Notes under the pieces: model-generated
What the model saw: the letters and a program-made list of their open reading frames with translations, nothing else
What the model was told of the DNA's origin: nothing
Database searches by the model: none
Program-made: the position numbers and the translations under genes
Part shown: positions 1 through 15,150 of the stretch, in pieces
Numbering within the stretch: the stretch's first letter is position 1
How the letters are laid out: the number at the start of each line of letters is the position of its first letter
Origin: a virus
Lineage: Duplodnaviria; Heunggongvirae; Uroviricota; Caudoviricetes
Length of the DNA stretch: 27,795 bases
Direction: 5' to 3' (one strand)
IMG/VR virus record: IMGVR_UViG_2703718828_000002
Coordinates: 1-27,795 of that record

Positions 1-120
1 ATAAGTTGGAGTCATTACCGCATAAATCAACTAATTGAAATTACTAGAAATTATTTAGAAGCAGTAATCAATGGTTTTGATGACTATTTAAATAGAACAT
101 TGTACAGGACCGTCGCTTAG
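1..120 (+). CDS. C-terminal 39 codons of an ORF entering from upstream of the window; unknown product; convergent neighbour of the first cytosine methyltransferase
   Basis: Frame is open from base 1 to TAG at 118-120 (ending ...NYLEAVINGFDDYLNRTLYRTVA*); AT-rich like the adjacent MTase; a hairpin plus T-tract follows 16 nt later. Absent from the ORF track only because it is under 60 aa in-window. Confidence 0.3.
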   Translation: MSWSHYRINQLIEITRNYLEAVINGFDDYLNRTLYRTVA

Positions 121-135
121 AAAATATACGATCCC

Positions 136-161
136 ATGGCGTGCAATTGCACGCCATTTTT
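136..161 (+). terminator. Rho-independent terminator between convergent genes
   Basis: Perfect 22-nt palindrome ATGGCGTGCAATTGCACGCCAT (136-157) followed by T-run 157-161; lies between the stop of the partial ORF (120) and the stop of the minus-strand MTase (160-162). Confidence 0.5.
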
Positions 162-1191
162 AATTTGAAAGGTGCTTGAGAATACTTTGCCCAATGATCT
201 CGCCTAACCTTACCGGCACTGCATTTCCTATCATTCTTGCTGTTGATGCAATGTCCAAACTAGATTCTTTATCGAAAAATAAATAATCTTTCGGAAAACT
301 TTGCAGTATCGCAGCTTCTCTTAAGGAGATTGCCCTGTTTTGTTCTGGATGACCAAAGCGTCCATTACCAAAACCATAGCATTGTGTGGTTATTGTTGGA
401 CTTGGTTCATTCCATGACATCCTGCCATAAACACTTTTATAAAATTTTCCAGACTCTTTTAAGTGACAAGGTGCTCTCAAGTGTATCGGCCAATCATGCC
501 AATCGCCTCCGGGCTTTGAAGCTTTAATACGCTCCATGTTCAAAGGGCTAAGAGTAGAACATTTATGAAGTGGATCGCGCTTGTCACATTCTCCAGCATT
601 TAATGATGGAAGGCCAAATATTGCATCCTTAACAGTTACGTAATTTTTTTTGTTATGAGTCGGATCAATTATAGAGATAGGACCTAATTTGGATGCTAAT
701 AATACTAAACGTTTACGAGTTTGCGGCATTCCATAATCTGGGCAAAAAACGATCTTATAATAAACATTATATCCATGGCCTTCAAGGTTGTTTATGAAAT
801 CTTTAAATATGTCTTGTGTCATCAAGCCTGGTACATTCTCCATCGTGACGATAGAGGGTTGCGTTTCATCAATTAACCGCGAAAAAGAATATAATAATGC
901 CCATTTGTCATCTTTTTTCTTGTTTTTAGTTCTTCCATATGTTGAAAACGGCTGACAAGGAGCGCATCCAGCTAAAATCGTTACATCTGAATCTTTAAAA
1001 TGACTGAGGATCTGTTCACCCTTCAAAACGGTTATGTCTTGATTGATAAAAACTGCATTATTATTAAATTCAAACGCAAAACGGCAGGTTTCTTCAATAT
1101 CATAACCTGCTACAACATCAATGCCTGATTGCTTTAACCCATGGGTTAGCCCCCCGGCTCCGCAAAATAAATCTACTGCTTTGATTTTCAA
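160..1191 (-). CDS. DNA cytosine-5 methyltransferase (Dcm-like m5C MTase), copy 1
   Basis: 343-aa translation carries m5C-MTase motifs: DLFCGAGG (motif I), GCAPCQPFS (catalytic PCQ, motif IV), ENV (motif VI), QTRKR (motif VIII), GNAVPV (motif X). Start codon is TTG (rc of 1189-1191). AT-rich relative to the integrase next to it. Confidence 0.9.
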   Translation of the reverse strand: MKIKAVDLFCGAGGLTHGLKQSGIDVVAGYDIEETCRFAFEFNNNAVFINQDITVLKGEQILSHFKDSDVTILAGCAPCQPFSTYGRTKNKKKDDKWALLYSFSRLIDETQPSIVTMENVPGLMTQDIFKDFINNLEGHGYNVYYKIVFCPDYGMPQTRKRLVLLASKLGPISIIDPTHNKKNYVTVKDAIFGLPSLNAGECDKRDPLHKCSTLSPLNMERIKASKPGGDWHDWPIHLRAPCHLKESGKFYKSVYGRMSWNEPSPTITTQCYGFGNGRFGHPEQNRAISLREAAILQSFPKDYLFFDKESSLDIASTARMIGNAVPVRLGEIIGQSILKHLSN

Positions 1192-1223: not shown

Positions 1224-1260
1224 ATTATAACAGCTTTCATAAGCAACATCGATGATTAGT
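1224..1260 (-). promoter_or_regulatory. Candidate extended -10 promoter for MTase copy 1
   Basis: Minus strand reads TGtTATAAT (rc of 1224-1232), a perfect -10 hexamer with TG extension; the -35 region is poor. Sits in the 72-nt gap between the integrase stop and the MTase start. Confidence 0.3.
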
Positions 1261-1263
1261 TAT

Positions 1264-2457
1264 TCACATCATTTCTTTGACTTTGCTTCCCCACCATTTC
1301 ATAACTACAGCACGTTGTTCAAGGTATGTGCTACGGTTGTAGGCTCTACGTACCTCATTTTTGTCTGAATGAGCTAAGCAAGCCTCAATAACATCTGCGT
1401 TAAAGCAAGCTTCATTCATCGCGGTACTTGCTATAGAACGTAAACCATGCGCAACGAGCTTTCCATTATACCCAATACGTTTCAGTGCAGCATTCGCCGT
1501 TTGGCTATTCATCGGTTGCTTAGGATCATTCCTACTAGGGAATACGTGTACACGATGGGCACTGATAGGTTTCATTACTTCAAGTACCTCAAGTGCTTGA
1601 GGTGACAAAGGAACAATGTGCTCGCGTTTTGCCTTCATCCGCTCTGCTGGAATTGTCCATAGCTTAGCCTCAAAATCTATCTCTGACCATTGAGTACCGG
1701 AAGCTTCTGAGGGCCGTACGATAGTCAGTAGTTGCCATTCAATCAGGCAGCGAGTCGGGACTGATAGGTTTGACATAACCAATGATCGCATTAACTTTGG
1801 CAGTTCTTCTGGCCGCAATGTCGGCATGTTTTGCTTTTTAGGTTTCTCAAATGCCATACCAACACCTGATGCTGGGTTGCCATCAATCAAGCCGGTGTTA
1901 ACCGCATAAATCATTATCTCGTTGATGCGCTGCACCAGTCGACGTACAGTCTCAAGCGCCCCACGAGCTTTGATTGGCTCAAGAGCTTCAACCAGTGTAC
2001 GGGCTTTGATTTGCTGAACGGGGATCTCACCGATGGCAGGGAATACATCTTTCTCCAGTGAGCGCCAAATGTCTTTTGCGTAATCAGGAGTAACGCTTTT
2101 GCTTTTGAGCTGGAACCAGTTAGCGGCTACTGTTGAAAAAATACTGTCCAGTGCGATTTGCTGCTGTTCCTCTGCAACTTCAGCTTGAATTTGTGGGTCG
2201 ATTCCGTTGGCTAATAAAGCAAGGTAATTCGCTCTTAACCCTCGGGCATCAGCAAGCGAAAGGGCGGGGAAAGCACCTAGCCCCATCATTGTCCGTTGTT
2301 TTGTCGCCGGACGTTGATAACGAAAGCGCCAGAGCTTTTTTCCACTGGTTTTCACTATCAGGAAAAGGCCATTGCCATCATGCAGCGTTAGATCCTTCTC
2401 TAACGCTTTAGCGCGAAGAACTTCGGTATTGGTCAGGGGGCGTGTTGTCCGTGCCAC
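1264..2457 (-). CDS. int: P4/CP4-57-type tyrosine integrase (ssrA-targeting IntA-like)
   Basis: 397-aa translation beginning MARTTRPLTNTEVLRAK...LWRFRYQRP resembles P4-family integrases as recalled; GTG start (rc of 2455-2457) preceded by AAGGAG 8 nt upstream; the ssrA 3-prime core lies about 185 nt upstream on the same strand. Confidence 0.85.
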   Translation of the reverse strand: MARTTRPLTNTEVLRAKALEKDLTLHDGNGLFLIVKTSGKKLWRFRYQRPATKQRTMMGLGAFPALSLADARGLRANYLALLANGIDPQIQAEVAEEQQQIALDSIFSTVAANWFQLKSKSVTPDYAKDIWRSLEKDVFPAIGEIPVQQIKARTLVEALEPIKARGALETVRRLVQRINEIMIYAVNTGLIDGNPASGVGMAFEKPKKQNMPTLRPEELPKLMRSLVMSNLSVPTRCLIEWQLLTIVRPSEASGTQWSEIDFEAKLWTIPAERMKAKREHIVPLSPQALEVLEVMKPISAHRVHVFPSRNDPKQPMNSQTANAALKRIGYNGKLVAHGLRSIASTAMNEACFNADVIEACLAHSDKNEVRRAYNRSTYLEQRAVVMKWWGSKVKEMM

Positions 2458-2641: not shown

Positions 2642-2686
2642 TGGTGGAGCTGGCGGGAGTTGAACCCGCGTCCGAAATTCCTACAT
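2642..2686 (-). other. ssrA: Attachment-site core: terminal 45 nt of the tmRNA (ssrA) gene, not an intact gene
   Basis: Plus strand TGGTGGAGCTGGCGGGAGTTGAACCCGCGTCCGAAATTCCTACAT is the reverse complement of the recalled enterobacterial tmRNA 3-prime end (...AUGUAGGAAUUUCGGACGCGGGUUCAACUCCCGCCAGCUCCACCA). The match stops at 2686 and the flanking sequence is unrelated AT-rich DNA. Confidence 0.8.
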
Positions 2687-2818: not shown

Positions 2819-4339
2819 TTATTCAGGCTTTAATTTATTGATAATAGAATCTACCATTTTAATGCCTGCCTCATTGACTATGACTGAATTGACTACTCTA
2901 TCAAAATAGTCTTCTATATGGTGGGAAAATAGGAAAGCAGCACTTGATGGTTTTTTGTTCTTTTCAACTGCAGATTGCAAGACTTCATGAGGCGGAATTT
3001 TAAACCTTTTGCATGATGCAATGAGATATTCAAACTCTTCAAATGATAGACAAAAAATATTCTCTGTAGGGATATGATAGTTATGTTTAAACTTGTCATA
3101 TATCTTATTCATCTCATCTTTAGCATAAGTATTAGCTAGGATACTACCATTGCCTAAGAAAAGGTTTTTATATGTAATGCAAATGATATATGAGTTAGCC
3201 CTGAATGGAGCTATTATTCGCTCATTAGAGTATATTTCTCGATTAACTTCGTGAGATTGTTCGATTGCTTTTAATACCGATTTCTTTATTTTTCCTGCAA
3301 TATCCTCAGGGCGTAATGTTACCATGCCTTTTTGGTGTATCTCAACGCCTTTAGCATCAATGAAAATATTTGCCTCAGTATGTGGAATGAAATAATCAAC
3401 TACTTTATTATCTTTAGGTAGTCGTTCTTTAAGGTATTTTTCGTTATGAAAATCAATTTCGCTTTCTTTTAGTATTAATTCCAGTGCATTTTCAAATACA
3501 TTTCCAAAGCTATCCATGAACTTCTCGGCATCAGTTCTTCTTAAAAGATCATATATGAACGTCTGTATGCTTGTTGAAGTCAGTTGTGTGTGTATCTGAA
3601 AATACTCTGAACCTTTTTTTATTAATGGTTTTTCAAGGAAAGGTGATGATGAGTAGTATTCAAGCAAAGGTTTATCATAGGTTTTTGATTTGCAAAATGT
3701 AGATAGTTCATTGTAATTTATTGATATTGCATCAAGAAATTTCTCAATGGTATTTCTAGGAATGATGTCAAATAATATAGTAAATGTATCTACATTCATT
3801 TTTCTCACGGGATGCTCTTCTGTTATGTGAGTTATTAATATGTAAGATAGCTTAAGAAAGTCTTCTATAGATACATTCGTGATAGTAAAAAAACTTGTCT
3901 TTATTTTATGGTTTTTTTCAAGTTCTGAAAATAGAAAGACTTGTCTGCTAATTGTGTTTAGAGCGTCAATTTTCTGGTAGATTCCTTGTTGGTATAGATT
4001 ATTTCTAATGAAGAAATGCATGCCATTCTTCCTCTCAAGACCGATAGGAATAATGTTCAAGGTTTCATAAGTTTTTTGGAAGAGTTTTATTGCTTGATTT
4101 TTATCGAGGATTTTGAATTTTTTATTCTTGCCAGTTACTGACGCAGACCACTTTAGACATAAATTAACAATCCAAGGCATGTGTCGTAACATGTGGATAT
4201 TATCTTCAAATTTTTGTAAGTTATATTGCATACAGAATTCGATAAATAAATCAGGGGAATAACCTTGGATTTCTGAACGAATAGCATCCATTCTTAACTT
4301 TGCAACCGCATCAGATTGAATATCTAATTTTTGAATCAC
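2819..4339 (-). CDS. Hypothetical 506-aa protein; AT-rich cargo gene between the att core and the prophage integrase
   Basis: Long uninterrupted ORF with markedly lower GC than int; GTG start (rc of 4337-4339) with GGAG 9 nt upstream overlapping the int stop; no family recognised by eye. A weak D...DxK pattern (VVDYFIPHTEANIFIDAKG) is the only motif-like element noted. Confidence 0.65.
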   Translation of the reverse strand: MIQKLDIQSDAVAKLRMDAIRSEIQGYSPDLFIEFCMQYNLQKFEDNIHMLRHMPWIVNLCLKWSASVTGKNKKFKILDKNQAIKLFQKTYETLNIIPIGLERKNGMHFFIRNNLYQQGIYQKIDALNTISRQVFLFSELEKNHKIKTSFFTITNVSIEDFLKLSYILITHITEEHPVRKMNVDTFTILFDIIPRNTIEKFLDAISINYNELSTFCKSKTYDKPLLEYYSSSPFLEKPLIKKGSEYFQIHTQLTSTSIQTFIYDLLRRTDAEKFMDSFGNVFENALELILKESEIDFHNEKYLKERLPKDNKVVDYFIPHTEANIFIDAKGVEIHQKGMVTLRPEDIAGKIKKSVLKAIEQSHEVNREIYSNERIIAPFRANSYIICITYKNLFLGNGSILANTYAKDEMNKIYDKFKHNYHIPTENIFCLSFEEFEYLIASCKRFKIPPHEVLQSAVEKNKKPSSAAFLFSHHIEDYFDRVVNSVIVNEAGIKMVDSIINKLKPE

Positions 4340-7723: not shown

Positions 7724-7950
7724 TGGCTGATGCAATGGATCTTGTACAGCAGCGCGTTGAAGAAGAACGCCAGCGCCATATCCGTGCTGCCCGTGCCAAA
7801 ACGCCGGGCGTGTCCCGCGTGCTTTGCATTGAGTGTGAAGCGCCAATTCCGCCAGCACGCCGCCGCGCCATTCCAGGTGTGCAGCTTTGCATTACCTGTC
7901 AGGAAATCGCAGAACTGAAAGGCAAACATTACAACGGAGGTGCTGTATGA
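7723..7950 (+). CDS. DksA/TraR-type C4 zinc-finger protein
   Basis: 75 aa with CIECE...17 residues...CITCQ (Cys-x2-Cys...Cys-x2-Cys) at the C-terminus. Confidence 0.7.
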   Translation: MADAMDLVQQRVEEERQRHIRAARAKTPGVSRVLCIECEAPIPPARRRAIPGVQLCITCQEIAELKGKHYNGGAV

Positions 7951-8804
7951 GCACCATCCTGAAATGGGCGGGAAATAAAACCGCCATTATGTCCGAACTG
8001 AAAAAACACCTTCCTGCTGGCCCGCGACTGGTTGAACCTTTCGCGGGTTCCTGTGCTGTGATGATGGAGACGGATTACCCCAGCTATCTGGTTGCGGATA
8101 TTAATCCTGATTTAATCAACCTCTATAAAAAGGTTGCCGCTGATTGTGAATCGTTTATATCTCGCGCCAGAGTTTTATTTGAGATCGCAAACAGGGAGGT
8201 GGCTTATTACAACATAAGGCAGGAGTTTAATTACTCCACTGAAATTACTGATTTCATGAAAGCGGTATATTTCCTGTATCTCAATCGTCACGGTTACCGT
8301 GGTTTATGTCGCTATAACAAGAGCGGGCATTTCAACATTCCCTACGGTAATTATAAAAATCCGTATTTCCCTGAAAAAGAAATTCGCGCATTTGCAGAAA
8401 AAGCCCAGCGGGCAACGTTTATCTGCGCCAGCTTTGATGAAACGCTGGCGATGTTGAAGGCGGGGGATGTGGTGTATTGCGATCCGCCGTATGACGGCAC
8501 GTTTTCCGGTTATCACACTGACGGCTTCACTGAAGATGACCAGTATCACCTGGCATCCGTTCTTGAACATCGGTCATCAGAAGGACATCCGGTCATTGTT
8601 TCTAACAGTGACACATCCCTGATCCGTTCGCTGTATCGCAATTTTACTCACCACTACATCAAGGCAAAACGCAACATCGGTGTGGCAGCTGGCGAGGGTA
8701 AATCAGCAACAGAAATCATTGCTGTTTCCGGGCCGCGCTGCTGGGTGGGATTTGATTATTCGCGTGGCATGGACAGTTCTGCCGTGTACGGAGTACGTGC
8801 ATGA
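7947..8804 (+). CDS. dam: DNA adenine methyltransferase (Dam-like, N6-adenine)
   Basis: N-terminal LKWAGNK AdoMet-binding motif and catalytic DPPY (VYCDPPYDG). ATG 7947 with GGAGG 6 nt upstream, overlapping the previous stop (ATGA); the track start at 7887 has no RBS. Confidence 0.9.
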
Positions 8805-11215
8805 GTCATGCCGATATGAACAACTGCTGCGGCTTTAACGAGGCTACCGCAGCATTCTCATGGAACAGCCCGAAAAAGGCCATTAACCCTTATCTGGACC
8901 CGGCGGAAGTTGCGCCGGTTTCTGCGCTTTCAAACCTGATCACTCTGTACGCTGCCGATAACGAGCAGGAACAACTGCGCCGTGAGGCACTGAGTGATCA
9001 GGTCTGGGAGCGTTATTTCTTTAATGAATCCCGTGATCCTGTCCAGCGCGAAATGGAGCAGGATAAGCTAATTAGCCGGGCAAAGCTGGCGCATGAGCAG
9101 CAGCGTTTTAATCCAGACATGGTCATTCTGGCGGATGTCAACGCCCAGCCTTCCCATATCAGCAAGCCGCTGATGCAACGTATTAAATACTTCAGCAACC
9201 TGGGCAGGCCAAAGGCTTATTCCCGCTATTTGCGTGAGACGATTAAGCCATGCTTGGAACGACTGGAGCATGTACGCGACAGCCAGCTATCTGCATCTTT
9301 TCGTTTTATGGCAAGCCATGAAGGGCTGGACGGTCTGCTGATCCTGCCTGAAATGAGTCAGGATCAGGTGAAACGCCTGTCCACCCTTGTCGCTGCGCAT
9401 ATGAGCATGTGTCTTGATGCCGCTTGTGGTGATTTGTACGCCTCCGATGATGTTAAGCCGGAAGAAATCCGCAAGACATGGGAAAAGGTGGCAGCAGAAA
9501 CCCTGCGACTGGATGTCATACCGCCTGCGTTTGAGCAACTCCGCCGGAAAAGAAACCGCCGCAAACCTGTGCCCTATGAACTCATTCCGGGTTCGCTGGC
9601 GCGTATGCTGTGCGCCGACTGGTGGTATCGGAAATTATGGAAGATGCGTTGCGAATGGCGGGAAGAGCAGTTGCGTGCTGTCTGTCTGGTCAGCAAAAAA
9701 GCATCTCCCTATGTCAGCTATGAAGCCGTGATGCATAAACGTGAGCAGCGCCGTAAGTCGCTGGAGTTTTTCCGTTCTCATGAACTGGTGAACGAAGACG
9801 GCGACACGCTGGACATGGAGGATGTGGTAAACGCCAGCAGCAGCAACCCTGCGCATCGCCGCAATGAGATGATGGCCTGTGTTAAAGGCCTGGAGCTTAT
9901 CGCGGAAATGCGCGGTGACTGCGCCGTTTTCTACACCATCACCTGTCCGTCACGTTTCCATTCCACGCTAAATAACGGCAGGCCCAACCCGACCTGGACA
10001 AATGCGACGGTAAGACAAAGCAGTGATTATCTGGTTGGCATGTTTGCTGCATTTCGTAAGGCGATGCACAAAGCCGGATTGCGCTGGTATGGCGTGCGGG
10101 TGGCTGAGCCGCATCATGACGGTACAGTTCACTGGCACCTGTTGTGTTTTATGCGCAAAAAAGATCGCCGCGCCATTACTGCTTTGTTGCGTAAGTTTGC
10201 CATTCGTGAAGACCGCGAGGAGCTGGGGAATAACACGGGACCACGCTTTAAGTCTGAGTTGATTAACCCGCGCAAAGGAACGCCGACAAGCTACATCGCG
10301 AAATATATCAGTAAGAACATTGACGGGCGTGGTCTGGCTGGCGAGATCAGCAAGGAAACGGGTAAATCCCTGCGTGATAACGCTGAATACGTGAATGCCT
10401 GGGCGTCTCTGCATCGTGTTCAGCAATTCCGCTTCTTTGGCATTCCGGGGCGTCAGGCTTACCGTGAACTGCGATTGCTGGCTGGTCAGGCGGCAAGGCA
10501 ACAGGGTGACAAAAAAGCAGGTGCGCCGGTACTGGATAACCCGCGCCTTGATGCCATCCTGGCTGCTGCTGATGCTGGTTGTTTTGCCACCTACATCATG
10601 AAGCAGGGCGGCGTACTGGTTCCCCGCAAATATCACCTCATCAGAACCGCTTATGAAATCAACGAAGAGCCAACCGCCTATGGCGATCACGGTATTCGTA
10701 TTTATGGCATCTGGTCACCCATTGCAGAGGGCAAGATCTGCACTCATGCAGTGAAGTGGAAAATGGTTCGTAAGGCCGTTGACGTTCAGGAGGCGGCAGC
10801 CGACCAGGGCGCTTGCGCCCCTTGGACTCGTGGCAATAACTGTCCCCTTGCTGAAAATTTGTACCAACAAGGGAAAGACAAATCAGCTGATGGGGATACC
10901 AGAACGGATATTACCCGTATGGATGACAAGGAGTTGCACGATTACCTGCACAGTATGAACAAAAAAGAACGCCGGGAACTGGCTGCAAGATTACGCCTGG
11001 TGAAACCGAAACGGCGTAGAGACTACAAACAGCGAATTACAGACCATCAACGACAGCAGCTCGTCTATGAACTGAAGTCCAGAGGATTTGATGGCAGCGA
11101 GAAAGAGGTCGATTTACTCCTTCGCGGCGGCAGCATTCCGTCAGGAGCAGGCCTGCGTGTCTTCTATCGGAACCAGCGTTTGCAGGAAGATGATAAGTGG
11201 CGGAACCTGTATTAA
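8801..11215 (+). CDS. A: Replication initiation protein A (rolling-circle nickase, P2 gpA family)
   Basis: 804 aa with HUH-type motif [10 protein letters not shown] and paired tyrosines YIAKYISK; ATGA overlap with the dam stop; size and position match P2/186 gene A. Confidence 0.9.
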
Positions 11216-11842: not shown

Positions 11843-11865
11843 GGCGGCGTTTGCCGCACTTTTAT
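11843..11865 (+). terminator. Candidate terminator after the DinI-like gene
   Basis: GGCGGCG-TTT-GCCGC hairpin followed by ACTTTTAT; marks the boundary between GC-rich phage DNA and the AT-rich cargo block. Confidence 0.35.
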
Positions 11866-11998
11866 GGATGTTAGAACTAGTATTTTAGATCTTTATTTTA
11901 TTTAACATTTTGATTGTTATGCATTTTATTTGTTTTTGTTACTTTTGTCTGTAAAAATTTTGTAGGGTAAAATCATCATCGAAGTCGAGTTAAAATGA

Positions 11999-12007
11999 TG
12001 CTACAAT
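11999..12007 (+). promoter_or_regulatory. Candidate extended -10 promoter for MTase copy 2
   Basis: TGcTACAAT at 11999-12007, about 27 nt upstream of the TTG start; RBS AGGGAGGA at 12021-12028. Confidence 0.3.
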
Positions 12008-12034
12008 CCTTCAAGTATAGAGGGAGGACTTATT

Positions 12035-13075
12035 TTGATTAAAGTTGTTGATCTTTTTTGCGGAGCAGGTGGCTTAACTCATGGTTTGCAACGAGCAGGG
12101 TTGAATGTGGTTGCAGGCTATGATATTGATGCTACATGTCGGTATGCTTATGAAAAAAATAACAATGCTTTATTTGTGCAAAAAAGCGTCACTGAACTTG
12201 ATGAAGGGGAAATAAGTAAGCATTTTAAGGATGCATCAATTAAAGTTTTAGCTGGATGCGCTCCATGCCAGCCATTTTCTAGTTATACAAATACTGATAA
12301 ATCAGTAAAAAAAATAAAAGACCATCGATGGTCTTTATTGTATAGCTTTGCTAAGCAAATTCAATTATGTGCTCCAGATATAGTCACAATGGAGAATGTT
12401 CCAAGAGTTATTAACCACAAAGTTTTTAAAGATTTTGTGAAGACTTTAAAGTCTGAAGGGTATTTCGTTTGGTATGATACTGTATTTTGTCCTGATTATG
12501 GAATGGCCCAAAGCCGATCTAGATTAGTGTTATTAGCGTCCAAGTTTGGCGAGATAAAACTAATCCCGCCAACACATGATAAAAATAACTATAACACTGT
12601 ACGTAGCGTTATTGGTGGATTGCCTCCTATTGATGCTGGATCGAGTGATGAGAAAGACAGACTTCATTATGCTGCATCTTTATCACCATTAAATATGGAG
12701 CGAATAAAACATTCTAAGCCAGGTGGAACATGGAAAGATTGGCCTGAGTACTTACGGGCGTCATGCCACACCAAAGAATCAGGATCTTCTTACACTGCAG
12801 TTTATGGAAGAATGAGCTGGGATAAACTTGGCTCTACAATTACAACACAATGTATAGGTTTTGGTAATGGTCGATTTGGTCATCCAGAACAAAATAGAGC
12901 TATTAGCCTAAGAGAGGCAGCTTTGCTTCAATCTTTTCCTCTAACTTATGAATTTTGGCCAGCTGAAGTAAAAGTTGAACTCAGGAATGTTGCACGACTG
13001 ATTGGTAATGCTGTGCCGGTGAGGCTCGGTGAAGTTGTTGGGCAAAGTATTATTGAACACCTTAAAAGAAAATAA
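12035..13075 (+). CDS. DNA cytosine-5 methyltransferase (Dcm-like m5C MTase), copy 2, paralogous to copy 1
   Basis: 346 aa with DLFCGAGG, GCAPCQPFS, ENV, QSRSR and GNAVPV motifs; collinear by eye with the 160..1191 protein along its whole length; TTG start with strong SD; AT-rich. Confidence 0.9.
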   Translation: MIKVVDLFCGAGGLTHGLQRAGLNVVAGYDIDATCRYAYEKNNNALFVQKSVTELDEGEISKHFKDASIKVLAGCAPCQPFSSYTNTDKSVKKIKDHRWSLLYSFAKQIQLCAPDIVTMENVPRVINHKVFKDFVKTLKSEGYFVWYDTVFCPDYGMAQSRSRLVLLASKFGEIKLIPPTHDKNNYNTVRSVIGGLPPIDAGSSDEKDRLHYAASLSPLNMERIKHSKPGGTWKDWPEYLRASCHTKESGSSYTAVYGRMSWDKLGSTITTQCIGFGNGRFGHPEQNRAISLREAALLQSFPLTYEFWPAEVKVELRNVARLIGNAVPVRLGEVVGQSIIEHLKRK

Positions 13076-13099
13076 AAAGGGCGAATCGCCCTTTTTTTT
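13074..13099. terminator. Bidirectional terminator shared by the convergent MTase and GHKL genes
   Basis: A-run, GGGCG-AAT-CGCCC hairpin, T8 run; overlaps both stop codons (13073-13075 and 13098-13100). Confidence 0.5.
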
Positions 13100-15056
13100 A
13101 GATACCATCAACAATTTTCATTATTCGTGCAGCATCATCTTTTTTGCTCTGATACTCAGAGTATGCTTGTTTGGATTGTATTATAAGATCGCTATATGTT
13201 AATACCTTTGCATTTATAGATTGTAGCTGTGAGCGAATATAATTATCTCCACTTCCGTCATAACCTTTGCCGACAAGAAAAACTACATCTATCGGTGGTA
13301 TTTTTCCGGCAGGGCAACTATTTGGGTTGTTTCTAAACCACTGCTCTGTGGCAACAACATATTTCCTTCCTTGACCTACTAATGCCAAAATATCAGGATA
13401 TACATTTGGTCTTTTCATTTCAATGATGACGTGTTTACCTGAAACGGTTTTGAAGGCTATATCAATTCTTGCACCACTTTCAGCGTCAGGGTTAACCTCT
13501 TTCAATTCCTTAGTCAGGGTTTGTTCCATAACTGTAGAACCAGTAACCCTCTCCCATGATGGGTCTAACAGCCATAAGTGGTCATAAAGATATTTTTGTA
13601 CAGCCTTCTCTAACTCATTGTCATCGGTGATTTTTTGAAATTTCTCAATAACTTTCAATCGCTGTGATGTAATCTCATAAAAAAGGCTTGCCTCAATATC
13701 ATTTACAGAAGCAAAAACCTCCCTAAAATGTTCTGAGTTTAAATCGCTAATTTTATCTAAAGCCTCAAGGTTATCTTTTATTCTTAATCTTTCAAAAGCA
13801 AGAACTGTATTTTTTAATACGGTTTTTTTTGCAATTTTCTGGTTTTCTTCATCTCCAGAAAATCTAAATGTGTTAATTTTGCCTAGTAATTTTTCGGCGC
13901 TGTTTCTTTCATGTTTTGACATGGAATCAAGCCAATCACTTACAGCAGGTGAAGTTTTTTTAACCTCGCTAAGACCTTTTGCTCTTCGCCATTCATCCCA
14001 TTCTTTATCTATTTTTTGTAATGTCCGTTCTAAGAAACCCTTAATCACAGGATAGCGTGGATCATTCTGCTGTAATTTCTGTCGGGATGAGGTTGCCATG
14101 TCAGGTTTTTCATTTTCATCTAAAAAATCTGCGACAAGTTCCCCTACTAAATAATTTGTAAAAACCTTTGCGCTTCCGAATTCAAGCAATATATCTTCTT
14201 CAAATACCCGCCCATTTGATATTACGGTTATCGTGTTGTTAGATATTTCAGGGTCTTTTTTAAGTTGAGATGGTTTCTCAACACTTCCTACATAACCAGT
14301 AATGAAATAATCTACGCCTTCAAAAGATAATTTGTTATCTAGAAGGCTTTTTTTAGAAAGATTTTTGCAAGATTTTACTCTTGCGGGATCTGAACTACCA
14401 AACTCCCATAAAAATTCAAGATCTGAAAGGAAGTCTCTATCTTCAGTAGTTATCTCAGTGTCATTGATTTTAACTATAAAATCATGACCAGGACCAATTA
14501 TGCTAAACCGTCTGGCAAGTCTTTTTCTTAGATAGGTCTGAGTTCTATCAATGGATTTTTTTAAATCCATAAGAACTATTGTCGTCCCTATACTAAAGTC
14601 TTTCGGAACATTAATAATATTTGCAACATATTGTTTACTGCTTTTTATACAGCGTTGCAATTCATCAACGTCAACTTCAAATCCCTGAGGCGTTTGGCCA
14701 ATTTTGTGAGAAAATACTTGGATTTTGTTAGCTAATGAAAACATTGCTAATTTACCAATGCCTTTTCTACCCATGACTTGTCGTTGTAATCCATCACTTT
14801 TATACCTTCCACTTTCTCTTCTGGCATATCCAACTTTTAGGAATTTATTAATGATGTCATCTTTTGACATTCCATGTCCATCATCTTTAATTATTACCTT
14901 TTCATTTTCAACATCTAGAGTGATGTCTACATTTTTAGCATCCGCATCCCAAGCATTTGAGATTATTTCAGTTAGAACAGCTGGTGTGTTAGAGTAAAGA
15001 CTCATACCTAAATGATTCAATACATTCAGGTCTATTTTAATTTCGAAATCGGACAT
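13098..15056 (-). CDS. GHKL-superfamily ATPase (MORC/MutL/Hsp90-like Bergerat fold) with C-terminal PD-(D/E)xK-like motif; candidate effector partner of MTase copy 2
   Basis: 652 aa. N-terminus carries N-box EIISNAWDADA, G1 box DDGHGM and G2 box GRKGIGKLAMFS; C-terminus carries RIDIAF...12 residues...IIEMKRP (D...ExK). ATG at rc 15054-15056 with AAGGA RBS; AT-rich. Confidence 0.8.
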   Translation of the reverse strand: MSDFEIKIDLNVLNHLGMSLYSNTPAVLTEIISNAWDADAKNVDITLDVENEKVIIKDDGHGMSKDDIINKFLKVGYARRESGRYKSDGLQRQVMGRKGIGKLAMFSLANKIQVFSHKIGQTPQGFEVDVDELQRCIKSSKQYVANIINVPKDFSIGTTIVLMDLKKSIDRTQTYLRKRLARRFSIIGPGHDFIVKINDTEITTEDRDFLSDLEFLWEFGSSDPARVKSCKNLSKKSLLDNKLSFEGVDYFITGYVGSVEKPSQLKKDPEISNNTITVISNGRVFEEDILLEFGSAKVFTNYLVGELVADFLDENEKPDMATSSRQKLQQNDPRYPVIKGFLERTLQKIDKEWDEWRRAKGLSEVKKTSPAVSDWLDSMSKHERNSAEKLLGKINTFRFSGDEENQKIAKKTVLKNTVLAFERLRIKDNLEALDKISDLNSEHFREVFASVNDIEASLFYEITSQRLKVIEKFQKITDDNELEKAVQKYLYDHLWLLDPSWERVTGSTVMEQTLTKELKEVNPDAESGARIDIAFKTVSGKHVIIEMKRPNVYPDILALVGQGRKYVVATEQWFRNNPNSCPAGKIPPIDVVFLVGKGYDGSGDNYIRSQLQSINAKVLTYSDLIIQSKQAYSEYQSKKDDAARIMKIVDGI

Positions 15057-15121
15057 ATCCTTTCCTTGCTGAAGCTTGTAGGCAGAGCTTAAGCCTACTC
15101 ATGTGAACAAAATCCCTCGAA

Positions 15122-15150
15122 ACTAAACATTGATTTTGACTAAATGTCAA
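15122..15150 (-). promoter_or_regulatory. Candidate promoter for the GHKL gene overlapping a 15-nt palindrome
   Basis: Minus strand TTGACA (rc 15145-15150), 17-nt spacer, TTTAGT (rc 15122-15127); TTGACTAAATGTCAA (15136-15150) is a perfect 5-5 inverted repeat that includes the -35. Confidence 0.35.

Follow-up and report, generated by a model that had tools for sequence, protein, structure and literature searches.

Introduction

In restriction-modification (R-M) systems, the extent of self-damage and the frequency with which phages slip through both depend on how methylase and nuclease are balanced. In the Esp1396I system, an excess of methylase lowers protection against phages, and cells with a high methylase-to-nuclease ratio act as entry points (PMC9757035), while modelling ties noise in the R-M enzymes to self-restriction and to phage escape (PMC6629147). 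A review of R-M regulation deals with controller (C) proteins, autorepression by methylases with a helix-turn-helix (HTH) region, methylation of cognate sites and antisense RNA; start-codon choice is absent from it (PMC3874152). Two kinds of described system are of particular relevance here. M.HgiDII and M.BbrUII are characterised 5-methylcytosine enzymes acting on GTCGAC (PMC5867850, PMC5005818), and an association of ParB and HEPN (MAE_28990) proteins with methylases has been noted computationally (Anantharaman et al. 2013; PMC3710099). We analysed a 27,795-nucleotide stretch of viral DNA (IMG/VR record IMGVR_UViG_2703718828_000002, positions 1 to 27,795; hereafter the window, meaning the whole stretch) that carries two paralogous C5 DNA methyltransferase genes, copy 1 and copy 2, each of which resembles one of these kinds of system and both of which start with TTG.

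The reading that we prefer, and to which we give a probability of roughly 0.6, is that both genes are the modification genes of restriction-type defence modules located in hotspots of mobile elements, and that both have kept the control region of a single ancestor, consisting of a predicted stand-alone sigma-70 promoter, an upstream box, a leader and a TTG start codon, which together would combine steady transcription with throttled translation.

Results

Both methyltransferase genes start with TTG behind an extended -10 element

Copy 1 (160-1191, minus strand; 343 amino acids; PF00145, 1.1e-61) and copy 2 (12035-13075, plus strand; 346 amino acids; PF00145, 4.7e-57) share 62% amino acid identity. 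PF00145 spans residues 2-340 in both copies, TIGR00675 yields 141 and 119 bits (cutoff 100.65), and the alignment shows no variation in motif I (FxGxG), the catalytic PCQ or ENV, as is characteristic of the C5 class. For copy 2, homology to the characterised M.HgiDII and M.BbrUII leads us to infer specificity for GTCGAC. Target-recognition regions of the two copies are 65% identical and their catalytic parts 60%; since recognition regions are thus conserved at least as well as catalytic ones, the same specificity is suggested for both.

A sequence-only reading of the window had proposed that the two genes share TTG starts and extended -10 promoters. The starts are indeed forced, as TTG is the sole candidate ahead of motif I in each frame. 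The frame of copy 2 is opened by an in-frame TGA (11996-11998), and TTG at 12035-12037 is the only ATG, GTG or TTG before motif I (DLFCGAGG), which follows five codons on. In copy 1, the in-frame stop TAG (1203-1201) is followed by AGA ATT ATT and then by the initiation TTG (1189-1191, minus strand; read 1191-1189), for which the PGAP annotation gives the same start; motif I begins six codons later. The next in-frame methionine lies near residue 117-119 in either protein, beyond motif I and the catalytic PCQ, so that initiation at a downstream ATG would yield an inactive enzyme.

The promoter elements that had been pointed out earlier are in place as well. Copy 2 carries a Shine-Dalgarno (SD) sequence, AGGGAGGA (12021-12028, plus strand), 6 nt ahead of its TTG, and further upstream the extended -10 element TGcTACAAT (TGCTACAAT; 11999-12007, plus strand), 27 nt from the start codon. 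For copy 1, TGtTATAAT (TGTTATAAT) is found at 1232-1224 on the minus strand (1224-1232), 32 nt separate it from the TTG, and the SD sequence is weak (AGAGAA). In both cases a TG precedes a good -10 hexamer with a single base between the two, the arrangement that defines an extended -10 element. A scan for promoters with two hexamers listed neither site, because the -35 hexamers match the consensus at just three of six positions; a poor -35 element is typical of extended -10 promoters. The pattern TGNTANAAT has exactly two matches on both strands of the 27.8-kb window, and these are the two elements just described. With 4.2 matches expected the overall count is not enriched; the probability that both fall, correctly oriented, within about 50 nt upstream of the paralogues is approximately 1e-5 by rough arithmetic.

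The earlier reading missed a third conserved promoter element, a near-palindromic box in the -35 position. In copy 2 it reads CATCGAAG (11977-11984, plus strand), with 14 nt between it and the TG of the extended -10 element, the consensus of the relatives described below being C-a-TCGA-t-G. In copy 1 it is a perfect 8-bp palindrome, CATCGATG (1247-1254, minus strand), and the stop codon of the preceding integrase gene lies 9 nt ahead of it. The regions upstream of the two copies can be aligned without gaps from the CATCGA(T/A)G block through the -10 element. Judging from this alignment, the TTG start and the promoter features common to both copies are inherited and not convergent, a point that the earlier reading had also overlooked.

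The layout of the control region is conserved across genera

DNA of relatives came from viral contigs, a metagenome scan and contigs on which specific homologues are encoded. The resulting clade alignment comprises 16 sequences with pairwise amino acid identities of 57-100%, from E. coli, an Enterobacter-like organism, Pantoea, Rosenbergiella, Serratia, Providencia, two Vibrio, Atlantibacter, Acinetobacter, Yersinia, Pectobacterium and Aeromonas. All 16 show the same order of elements: a C-n-TCGA-n-G box, exactly 14 nt, and TGnTA(C/T)AAT, followed after 27-41 nt (counted from the end of the -10 element) by the start codon. The box is conserved column by column as C 16, a 13, T 16, C 16, G 15, A 16, t 13 and G 16; in the extended -10 element, TG is found in 16/16 and the hexamer positions T-A-.-A-A-T in 16, 16, -, 15, 15 and 16 sequences, respectively. 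The 14 columns between them are essentially random. The only degenerate -10 element, TGtTAAGCT, belongs to Providencia. An SD sequence of the type GGAGG/GGGAGG is kept at equal spacing throughout the subclade linked to restriction genes, to which copy 2 belongs.

Thirteen of the 16 sequences have TTG as the aligned start codon, and both Vibrio sequences have GTG; the Providencia gene (L103), with GTG at the aligned position, was counted as ambiguous because its -10 element is degenerate and an in-frame ATG lies upstream. Accordingly, T is the first base of the aligned codon in 13 of the 16 sequences and G in 3, and A does not occur. Independent gene callers chose the same TTG or GTG starts in 10 lineages. 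In a neighbour-joining tree, all non-ATG sequences fall into one clade, which unites a DUF262/HEPN-linked subclade, including copy 1, with a subclade linked to a GHKL restriction enzyme, including copy 2. Sister sequences from Halomonas, Halovibrio, Acinetobacter (L023 and L024), Alkalimonas, Rheinheimera, Kluyvera and Neptuniibacter start with ATG. Several of them possess TCGATG 17 bp before the -10 element and lack the TG extension, so that the geometry of box and -10 element is the older feature, and the TG extension and the non-ATG start are derived and were then retained.

Farther out, among the matches listed, 80 distant species-level loci (52-62% identity) have approximately 64 ATG, 14 GTG and 3-6 credible TTG starts; with best-supported starts that are mostly ATG, TTG was dismissed as a trait of the family as a whole. 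An origin of the TTG from low-GC donors was likewise discarded, as homologues from Firmicutes and Bacteroidota use ATG. The neighbouring genes follow the common rule, too. All effector genes (restriction enzyme and DUF262) start with ATG behind a modest SD sequence of the AAGGAA type. In the RefSeq annotation of a matching prophage (strain PEC1011), ATG is the start of 41 of the 46 genes and TTG of none, and the copy 2 methyltransferase is the only gene of that prophage with a TTG available at its start. UUG starts 3% of E. coli genes (bioRxiv 10.1101/063800). As a side observation, the longest open reading frame (ORF) for the Dam (D12-class) methyltransferase in the window (7887-8804), which overlaps the start of gpA (8801-11215) by 4 nt, begins with TTG; the RefSeq product has 285 amino acids and an ATG start, so this TTG is probably not the real start.

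Searches based on the motifs gave the same picture. A metagenome scan anchored on box, -10 element and motif I, with the start codon left free, returned 11 contigs, all encoding this methyltransferase; the aligned codon is TTG in every one of them, including three further lineages. When viral contigs were scanned for the motif only, 48 matches were obtained, 11 of which precede this methyltransferase, all with TTG. The other 37 are not followed by it and correspond approximately to the number expected by chance for a 15-base pattern, given a rough estimate of the size of the collection. The only family that such blind scans recovered beyond chance is thus this methyltransferase, always with TTG at the aligned start.

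Alternative explanations for the conserved start and promoter

As a neutral control for the clade alignment, we used fourfold degenerate sites in columns with an invariant amino acid, of which the same 16 sequences offer 56. These sites are saturated, with pairwise identities of 27-38%, not a single invariant site (0/56) and a largest majority of 11/16. A makes up 33% of their bases, and just one of the 56 sites is devoid of it. Both the T13/G3/A0 distribution at the first base of the start codon and the thirteen promoter columns conserved in at least 15 of 16 sequences lie outside this neutral distribution. Phylogenetic inertia, in which TTG and promoter elements are common by descent with nothing selecting them, would be in keeping with the homology of the upstream regions and with the monophyly of the non-ATG clade, since one ancestral TTG explains the shared state without convergence. 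Had relatedness been all, however, the fourfold sites should not have been randomised to this degree, nor should a random 14-nt spacer separate blocks conserved in 15-16 of 16 sequences, nor should A be missing from the first base of the start codon. We therefore disfavour inertia as very improbable: conserved blocks flanking a random spacer, together with saturated fourfold sites, argue for selection beyond relatedness. Selection on a weak, non-ATG start codon is supported by these comparisons, and the suggestion of the sequence-only reading that a rare start codon is held by selection is well supported by the retention of a non-ATG start in all lineages of the clade with an unambiguous start, against the background of saturated sites. 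A different question is whether the aligned codon is the start at all. Translation could begin at an ATT or ATC just upstream or at another codon, with TTG as an internal leucine, and ATT or ATC does precede TTG in many members of the clade. The preceding codon varies, however (AAG in Pectobacterium, AGT in Aeromonas, TAC in Providencia, AAA or ACA in the Vibrio sequences), whereas the aligned TTG/GTG is conserved throughout; the SD sequence of copy 2 lies 3 nt from the ATT as opposed to 6 nt from the TTG; and AUU initiates at 1-2% of the level of AUG, compared to 10-100% for GUG and UUG (bioRxiv 10.1101/063800). PGAP, moreover, annotates copy 1 at TTG. On these four grounds TTG is the more likely start of copy 2, and a mis-assigned start is highly improbable; even if true, the start would remain a weak non-ATG codon.

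A further question is where the main control resides. The box sits at a fixed distance of 17 bp from the -10 element with a two-fold-symmetric pattern in 16/16 sequences, it matches TTGACA at three of six positions while its non-consensus positions are invariant, and it persists in ATG-start sisters that lack the TG extension. It furthermore carries the TCGA core of the presumed GTCGAC target, and methylation-sensitive promoters of methylase genes are a known class (CfrBI/LlaDII; PMC3874152). Regulation could thus be primarily transcriptional, with the methylase, or methylation of TCGA, modulating its own promoter via the C-n-TCGA-n-G box and TTG serving for secondary tuning. Against this stands the fact that the flanks of the core are non-cognate and never complete GTCGAC; no such site occurs in or near either promoter, the only two in the window being at 1938 and 24580. 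The palindrome is broken in copy 2 (CATCGAAG), in Atlantibacter (CATCAATG) and in V. parahaemolyticus (CTTCGACG), the methylase is without a DNA-binding extension, and the box is not found upstream of the effector genes. We regard transcriptional feedback as the main control as unlikely, and it is compatible with the preferred combination of steady transcription and throttled translation, not exclusive of it. The box itself could function as a -35 element kept weak on purpose, or else serve feedback control as an operator or near-cognate site. The start codon, too, could serve conditional control instead of a lower mean level. Discrimination against non-AUG starts by initiation factor IF3 is established. 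Such IF3-dependent or growth-state-dependent discrimination would let methylase synthesis track physiology, or be delayed or boosted upon entry into a new host; infC and pcnB are mentioned in this connection in bioRxiv 10.1101/063800, and the tolerance of TTG and GTG, and not of ATG, at the aligned position would fit. Nothing of this is specific to the methyltransferase system, however, and T in 13 of 16 sequences suggests that TTG itself is preferred over any other non-AUG codon; conditional control is accordingly considered improbable.

Several observations weigh against the preferred reading, that is, against a conserved promoter and weak start that hold the methylase steady and low. In Providencia, the -10 element has become TGTTAAGCT, and an in-frame ATG inside the former box is used by the gene caller; promoter decay and remodelling of the start may have gone together in this single case (n = 1). 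In a metagenome lineage (L170), an in-frame ATG without an SD sequence precedes TTG by five codons, and Yersinia aldovae (L005), which is placed inside the clade, has TGTTATAAT without the box and could initiate at GTG or, four codons before it, at ATG. RefSeq/PGAP starts copy 2 of strain PEC1011 at ATT 12032, one codon earlier than TTG, which is likely an annotation inconsistency. The strong SD sequence (GGAGG) of the copy 2 subclade partly offsets the weak start codon. No terminator was detected by a hairpin scan between the integrase gene and copy 1, 72 nt downstream of it, so read-through transcription may supplement the promoter of copy 1. The sample comprises approximately 19 lineages out of roughly 8000 existing homologues. 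Finally, the rationale of low noise would derive from general theory and not from the methyltransferase system itself. Apart from these points, Providencia (at about 2930-3010 of its locus) is the only member of the clade in which the methyltransferase gene abuts gpA, and its DinI-like gene is absent.

Established R-M control devices

No ORF of at least 25 codons, and hence no gene for a C protein, is present in the gap upstream of the methylase gene, and the gap upstream of the restriction gene holds only overlapping ORFs of 26-64 codons without family support as C proteins. The methylases lack an N-terminal extension: motif I is located at residue 6-7, and an in-frame stop codon precedes the start by 4-13 codons. 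A conserved box was not found upstream of the restriction and DUF262 genes, where little is conserved apart from the AAGGAA SD sequence and ATG. No significant leader structure sequestering SD sequence or start codon was detected (z-scores of 0.07 and 0.80); a hairpin at 12007-12025 was rejected as a leader structure of copy 2, as it is mostly upstream of the likely transcription start. The loci therefore belong neither to the C-protein-controlled class, nor to the SsoII-like class of HTH autorepressors, nor, assuming GTCGAC as the target, to the CfrBI/LlaDII-like class with a cognate site in the promoter.

The restriction genes, for their part, all start with ATG behind a conserved cAGCAAGGAA SD sequence. 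Upstream of the one in the window (15057-15150, minus strand), a consensus TTGACA lies 17 nt before a poor -10 hexamer, TTTAGT, an arrangement that is not conserved in the clade and that is the mirror image of the methylase promoter with its poor -35 and consensus -10 elements.

Nuclease partners and mobile elements

The sequence-only reading also missed that the two paralogues serve different nuclease modules on different mobile elements. The host is E. coli, and integrase, CI, Dam, gpA, DinI, portal, terminase and capsid genes identify the window as a P2/Fels-2-like prophage. It starts, however, with a P4-like satellite (1-2686), arranged in tandem with the P2-like prophage (2819-27795) at ssrA. 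A 45-nt fragment of the ssrA 3' end, the duplicated attachment site, was placed between the two elements by coordinate mapping (2642-2686, minus strand); an intact tmRNA gene is not present in the window.

Copy 2 and its partner lie between gpA/DinI and the portal gene, a known defence hotspot of P2. A terminator-like hairpin 3' of the DinI-like gene (11844-11857, plus strand) isolates the transcription unit of copy 2. The partner (13098-15056, minus strand; ATG start, AAGGAA SD sequence) encodes a restriction enzyme of the BbrUII/HgiDII family with 652 amino acids and an N-terminal GHKL ATPase domain (PF13589; PADLOC REase_II); NF050001 covers residues 4-651 with 752 bits (cutoff 550). The two genes are convergent and 22 nt apart, and a bidirectional hairpin terminator at 13074-13096 (10-bp stem, AAAAAGGGCG/CGCCCTTTTT, with T runs on both strands) lies between them. 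A second defence cargo locus of the P2-like prophage holds a gene for a 506-residue antiphage protein of the GapS1 family (2819-4339, minus strand; NF047931, 428 bits), 12 nt downstream of the P2-like integrase gene; strain PEC1011 has a different gene at this position.

Copy 1 is situated in the P4 hotspot (int/psu), directly downstream of the P4-type tyrosine integrase gene of the satellite (1264-2457, minus strand; assigned by Pfam match and context). Facing it are the last 32 codons of a nuclease gene of the MAE_28990 HEPN family (22-117, plus strand; tblastn, 100% identity), with a palindromic hairpin (136-157) between the convergent genes; the remainder of the HEPN gene and a DUF262/GmrSD_N gene lie beyond the left edge of the window. 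Seven complete E. coli genomes carry an identical copy 1 segment, which there continues leftwards into HEPN, DUF262/GmrSD_N, delta, psu, capsid-assembly (sid-like by position), Icd-like and primase genes. DUF262 (PF03235) and HEPN (PF18737) genes next to the methylase gene are present in full in the E. coli copy 1 locus and in the loci of five relatives, and the convergent arrangement was found in E. coli, Pectobacterium, Yersinia, Acinetobacter, Atlantibacter and Aeromonas. The PADLOC models NsnA and PD-T4-2_A recognise the DUF262 protein, whereas the HEPN protein has no PADLOC match. A REBASE-based annotation of Chania multitudinisentens lists a protein of approximately 245 residues as 'Type IIP REase, GTCGAC', whose gene overlaps a homologous m5C methylase gene by 3 bp (PMC5005818). 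Size and arrangement (compare 8373-9101 of the full copy 1 locus) suggest that this is an HEPN_MAE_28990 protein; if so, listings of putative restriction enzymes may already include the HEPN partner.

Complete E. coli genomes in our collection carry either the copy 1 segment (seven genomes) or the copy 2 segment (two genomes), and none carries both. The tandem in the window is therefore unusual, yet it is not evidence of a functional linkage. Among 101 sequences of the family (100 loci fetched from among the matches listed, plus the window), approximately 40 have a GHKL restriction enzyme as partner, approximately 30 have DUF262 and HEPN, and some have neither. The methylase family itself, at 52-62% identity, extends over Proteobacteria, Cyanobacteria, Firmicutes, Bacteroidota, Actinobacteria and Chloroflexota, and a distribution of this kind implies that partners have probably been swapped repeatedly around one modification gene. 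Should the two copies indeed share their specificity, both modules would form one 'incompatibility group' and would cross-protect (for the concept, see PMC3874152).

Discussion

According to our preferred reading, one ancestral methylase gene gave rise to both copies, with its control region retained. The predicted sigma-70 promoter would stand alone, with a near-consensus, TG-extended -10 element (TGnTAYAAT) and the box in place of a -35 hexamer, and a presumably unstructured leader of roughly 20-25 nt would lead to the TTG initiation codon. Such a -10 element would provide constitutive, factor-independent transcription, and the TTG start would limit the number of proteins made per mRNA. By general theory, noise between cells at a given mean level is lowest when transcription is frequent and translation low. 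The expected outcome would be a methylase level that varies little between cells and is nevertheless capped, sufficient for protection of the chromosome without methylation of incoming phage DNA before the nuclease acts and without over-methylation of the host. That the purpose is to cap or steady the methylase relative to the nuclease, in line with the fixed, limited translation level suggested by the sequence-only reading, is plausible and fits the experiments on Esp1396I. Promoter activity, transcription start, use of TTG in vivo, the effect on methylase level and noise and the selective reason are what we infer from the compared sequences.

A bolder idea, which we consider doubtful, assigns the box a direct role. 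It might be a near-cognate ('star') site, which an excess of the GTCGAC methylase would bind or methylate, throttling its own TG-extended promoter. Together with TTG, this would amount to a controller-free dosage governor that would move together with the methylase gene and allow this gene to be combined with unrelated nuclease modules, be it a GHKL restriction enzyme or a ParB-HEPN pair, on phages and satellites.

A portable cis-regulatory cassette of box, TG-extended -10 element and non-ATG start has in any case been kept across genera and across a swap of nuclease partners, and it suggests a simple setting of methylase dosage without a controller. Single-base changes from TTG to ATG and changes in the box offer a clean experimental handle in the well-studied P2/P4 hotspots. 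The systems as such belong to known kinds and are ordinary among them; what is new is the conserved portable control cassette, a modest and incremental variation on R-M regulation.

This becomes apparent when the loci are set beside systems that have been described. Copy 2 closely resembles the HgiDII/BbrUII systems, as it combines a PF00145 methylase with a partner that scores 752 bits on the equivalog model of the family and has an N-terminal GHKL domain as in R.HgiDII (PMC2441816). It differs in that the system in the window is prophage cargo in the P2 gpA-portal hotspot, with specificity and activity predicted from sequence; no description of a conserved promoter and TTG module was found in the literature searched for the HgiDII/BbrUII family. 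Copy 1 lies beside exactly the pair of genes known from operons for ParB (DUF262/GmrSD_N), HEPN and methylase, although only the last 32 HEPN codons are contained in the window. With CfrBI and LlaDII, the loci share the lack of a C protein and a methylase promoter that carries regulatory information (PMC3874152), here in the form of a conserved, CpG-containing box; the promoters of those systems contain the cognate site, whereas no GTCGAC is present in or near either promoter in the window. SsoII, Ecl18kI, EcoRII and MspI likewise have a C5 methylase with its own promoter and a near-palindrome overlapping it. These methylases differ by an N-terminal DNA-binding region (residues 1-71 of M.SsoII), where motif I is at residue 6-7 here. 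The promoters correspond to extended -10 promoters of E. coli with respect to the TG one base upstream of a -10 hexamer with five to six of six matches and to the poor -35 element (3/6), which is invariant across genera here, as a dispensable -35 element would not be. The locations, finally, are those of the P2/P4 hotspots, between int and psu-delta-sid in P4 and between gpA and gpQ in P2 (Rousset et al. 2022; NAR 2026 gkag898, PMC13586616). In the passages of these papers found by term searches, systems are catalogued and cis-regulatory conservation of the cargo is not discussed, the term 'start codon' having 0 occurrences in the 2026 paper, whereas in the two loci described here it is the control region, from the box to the TTG, that has been conserved along with the methylase.

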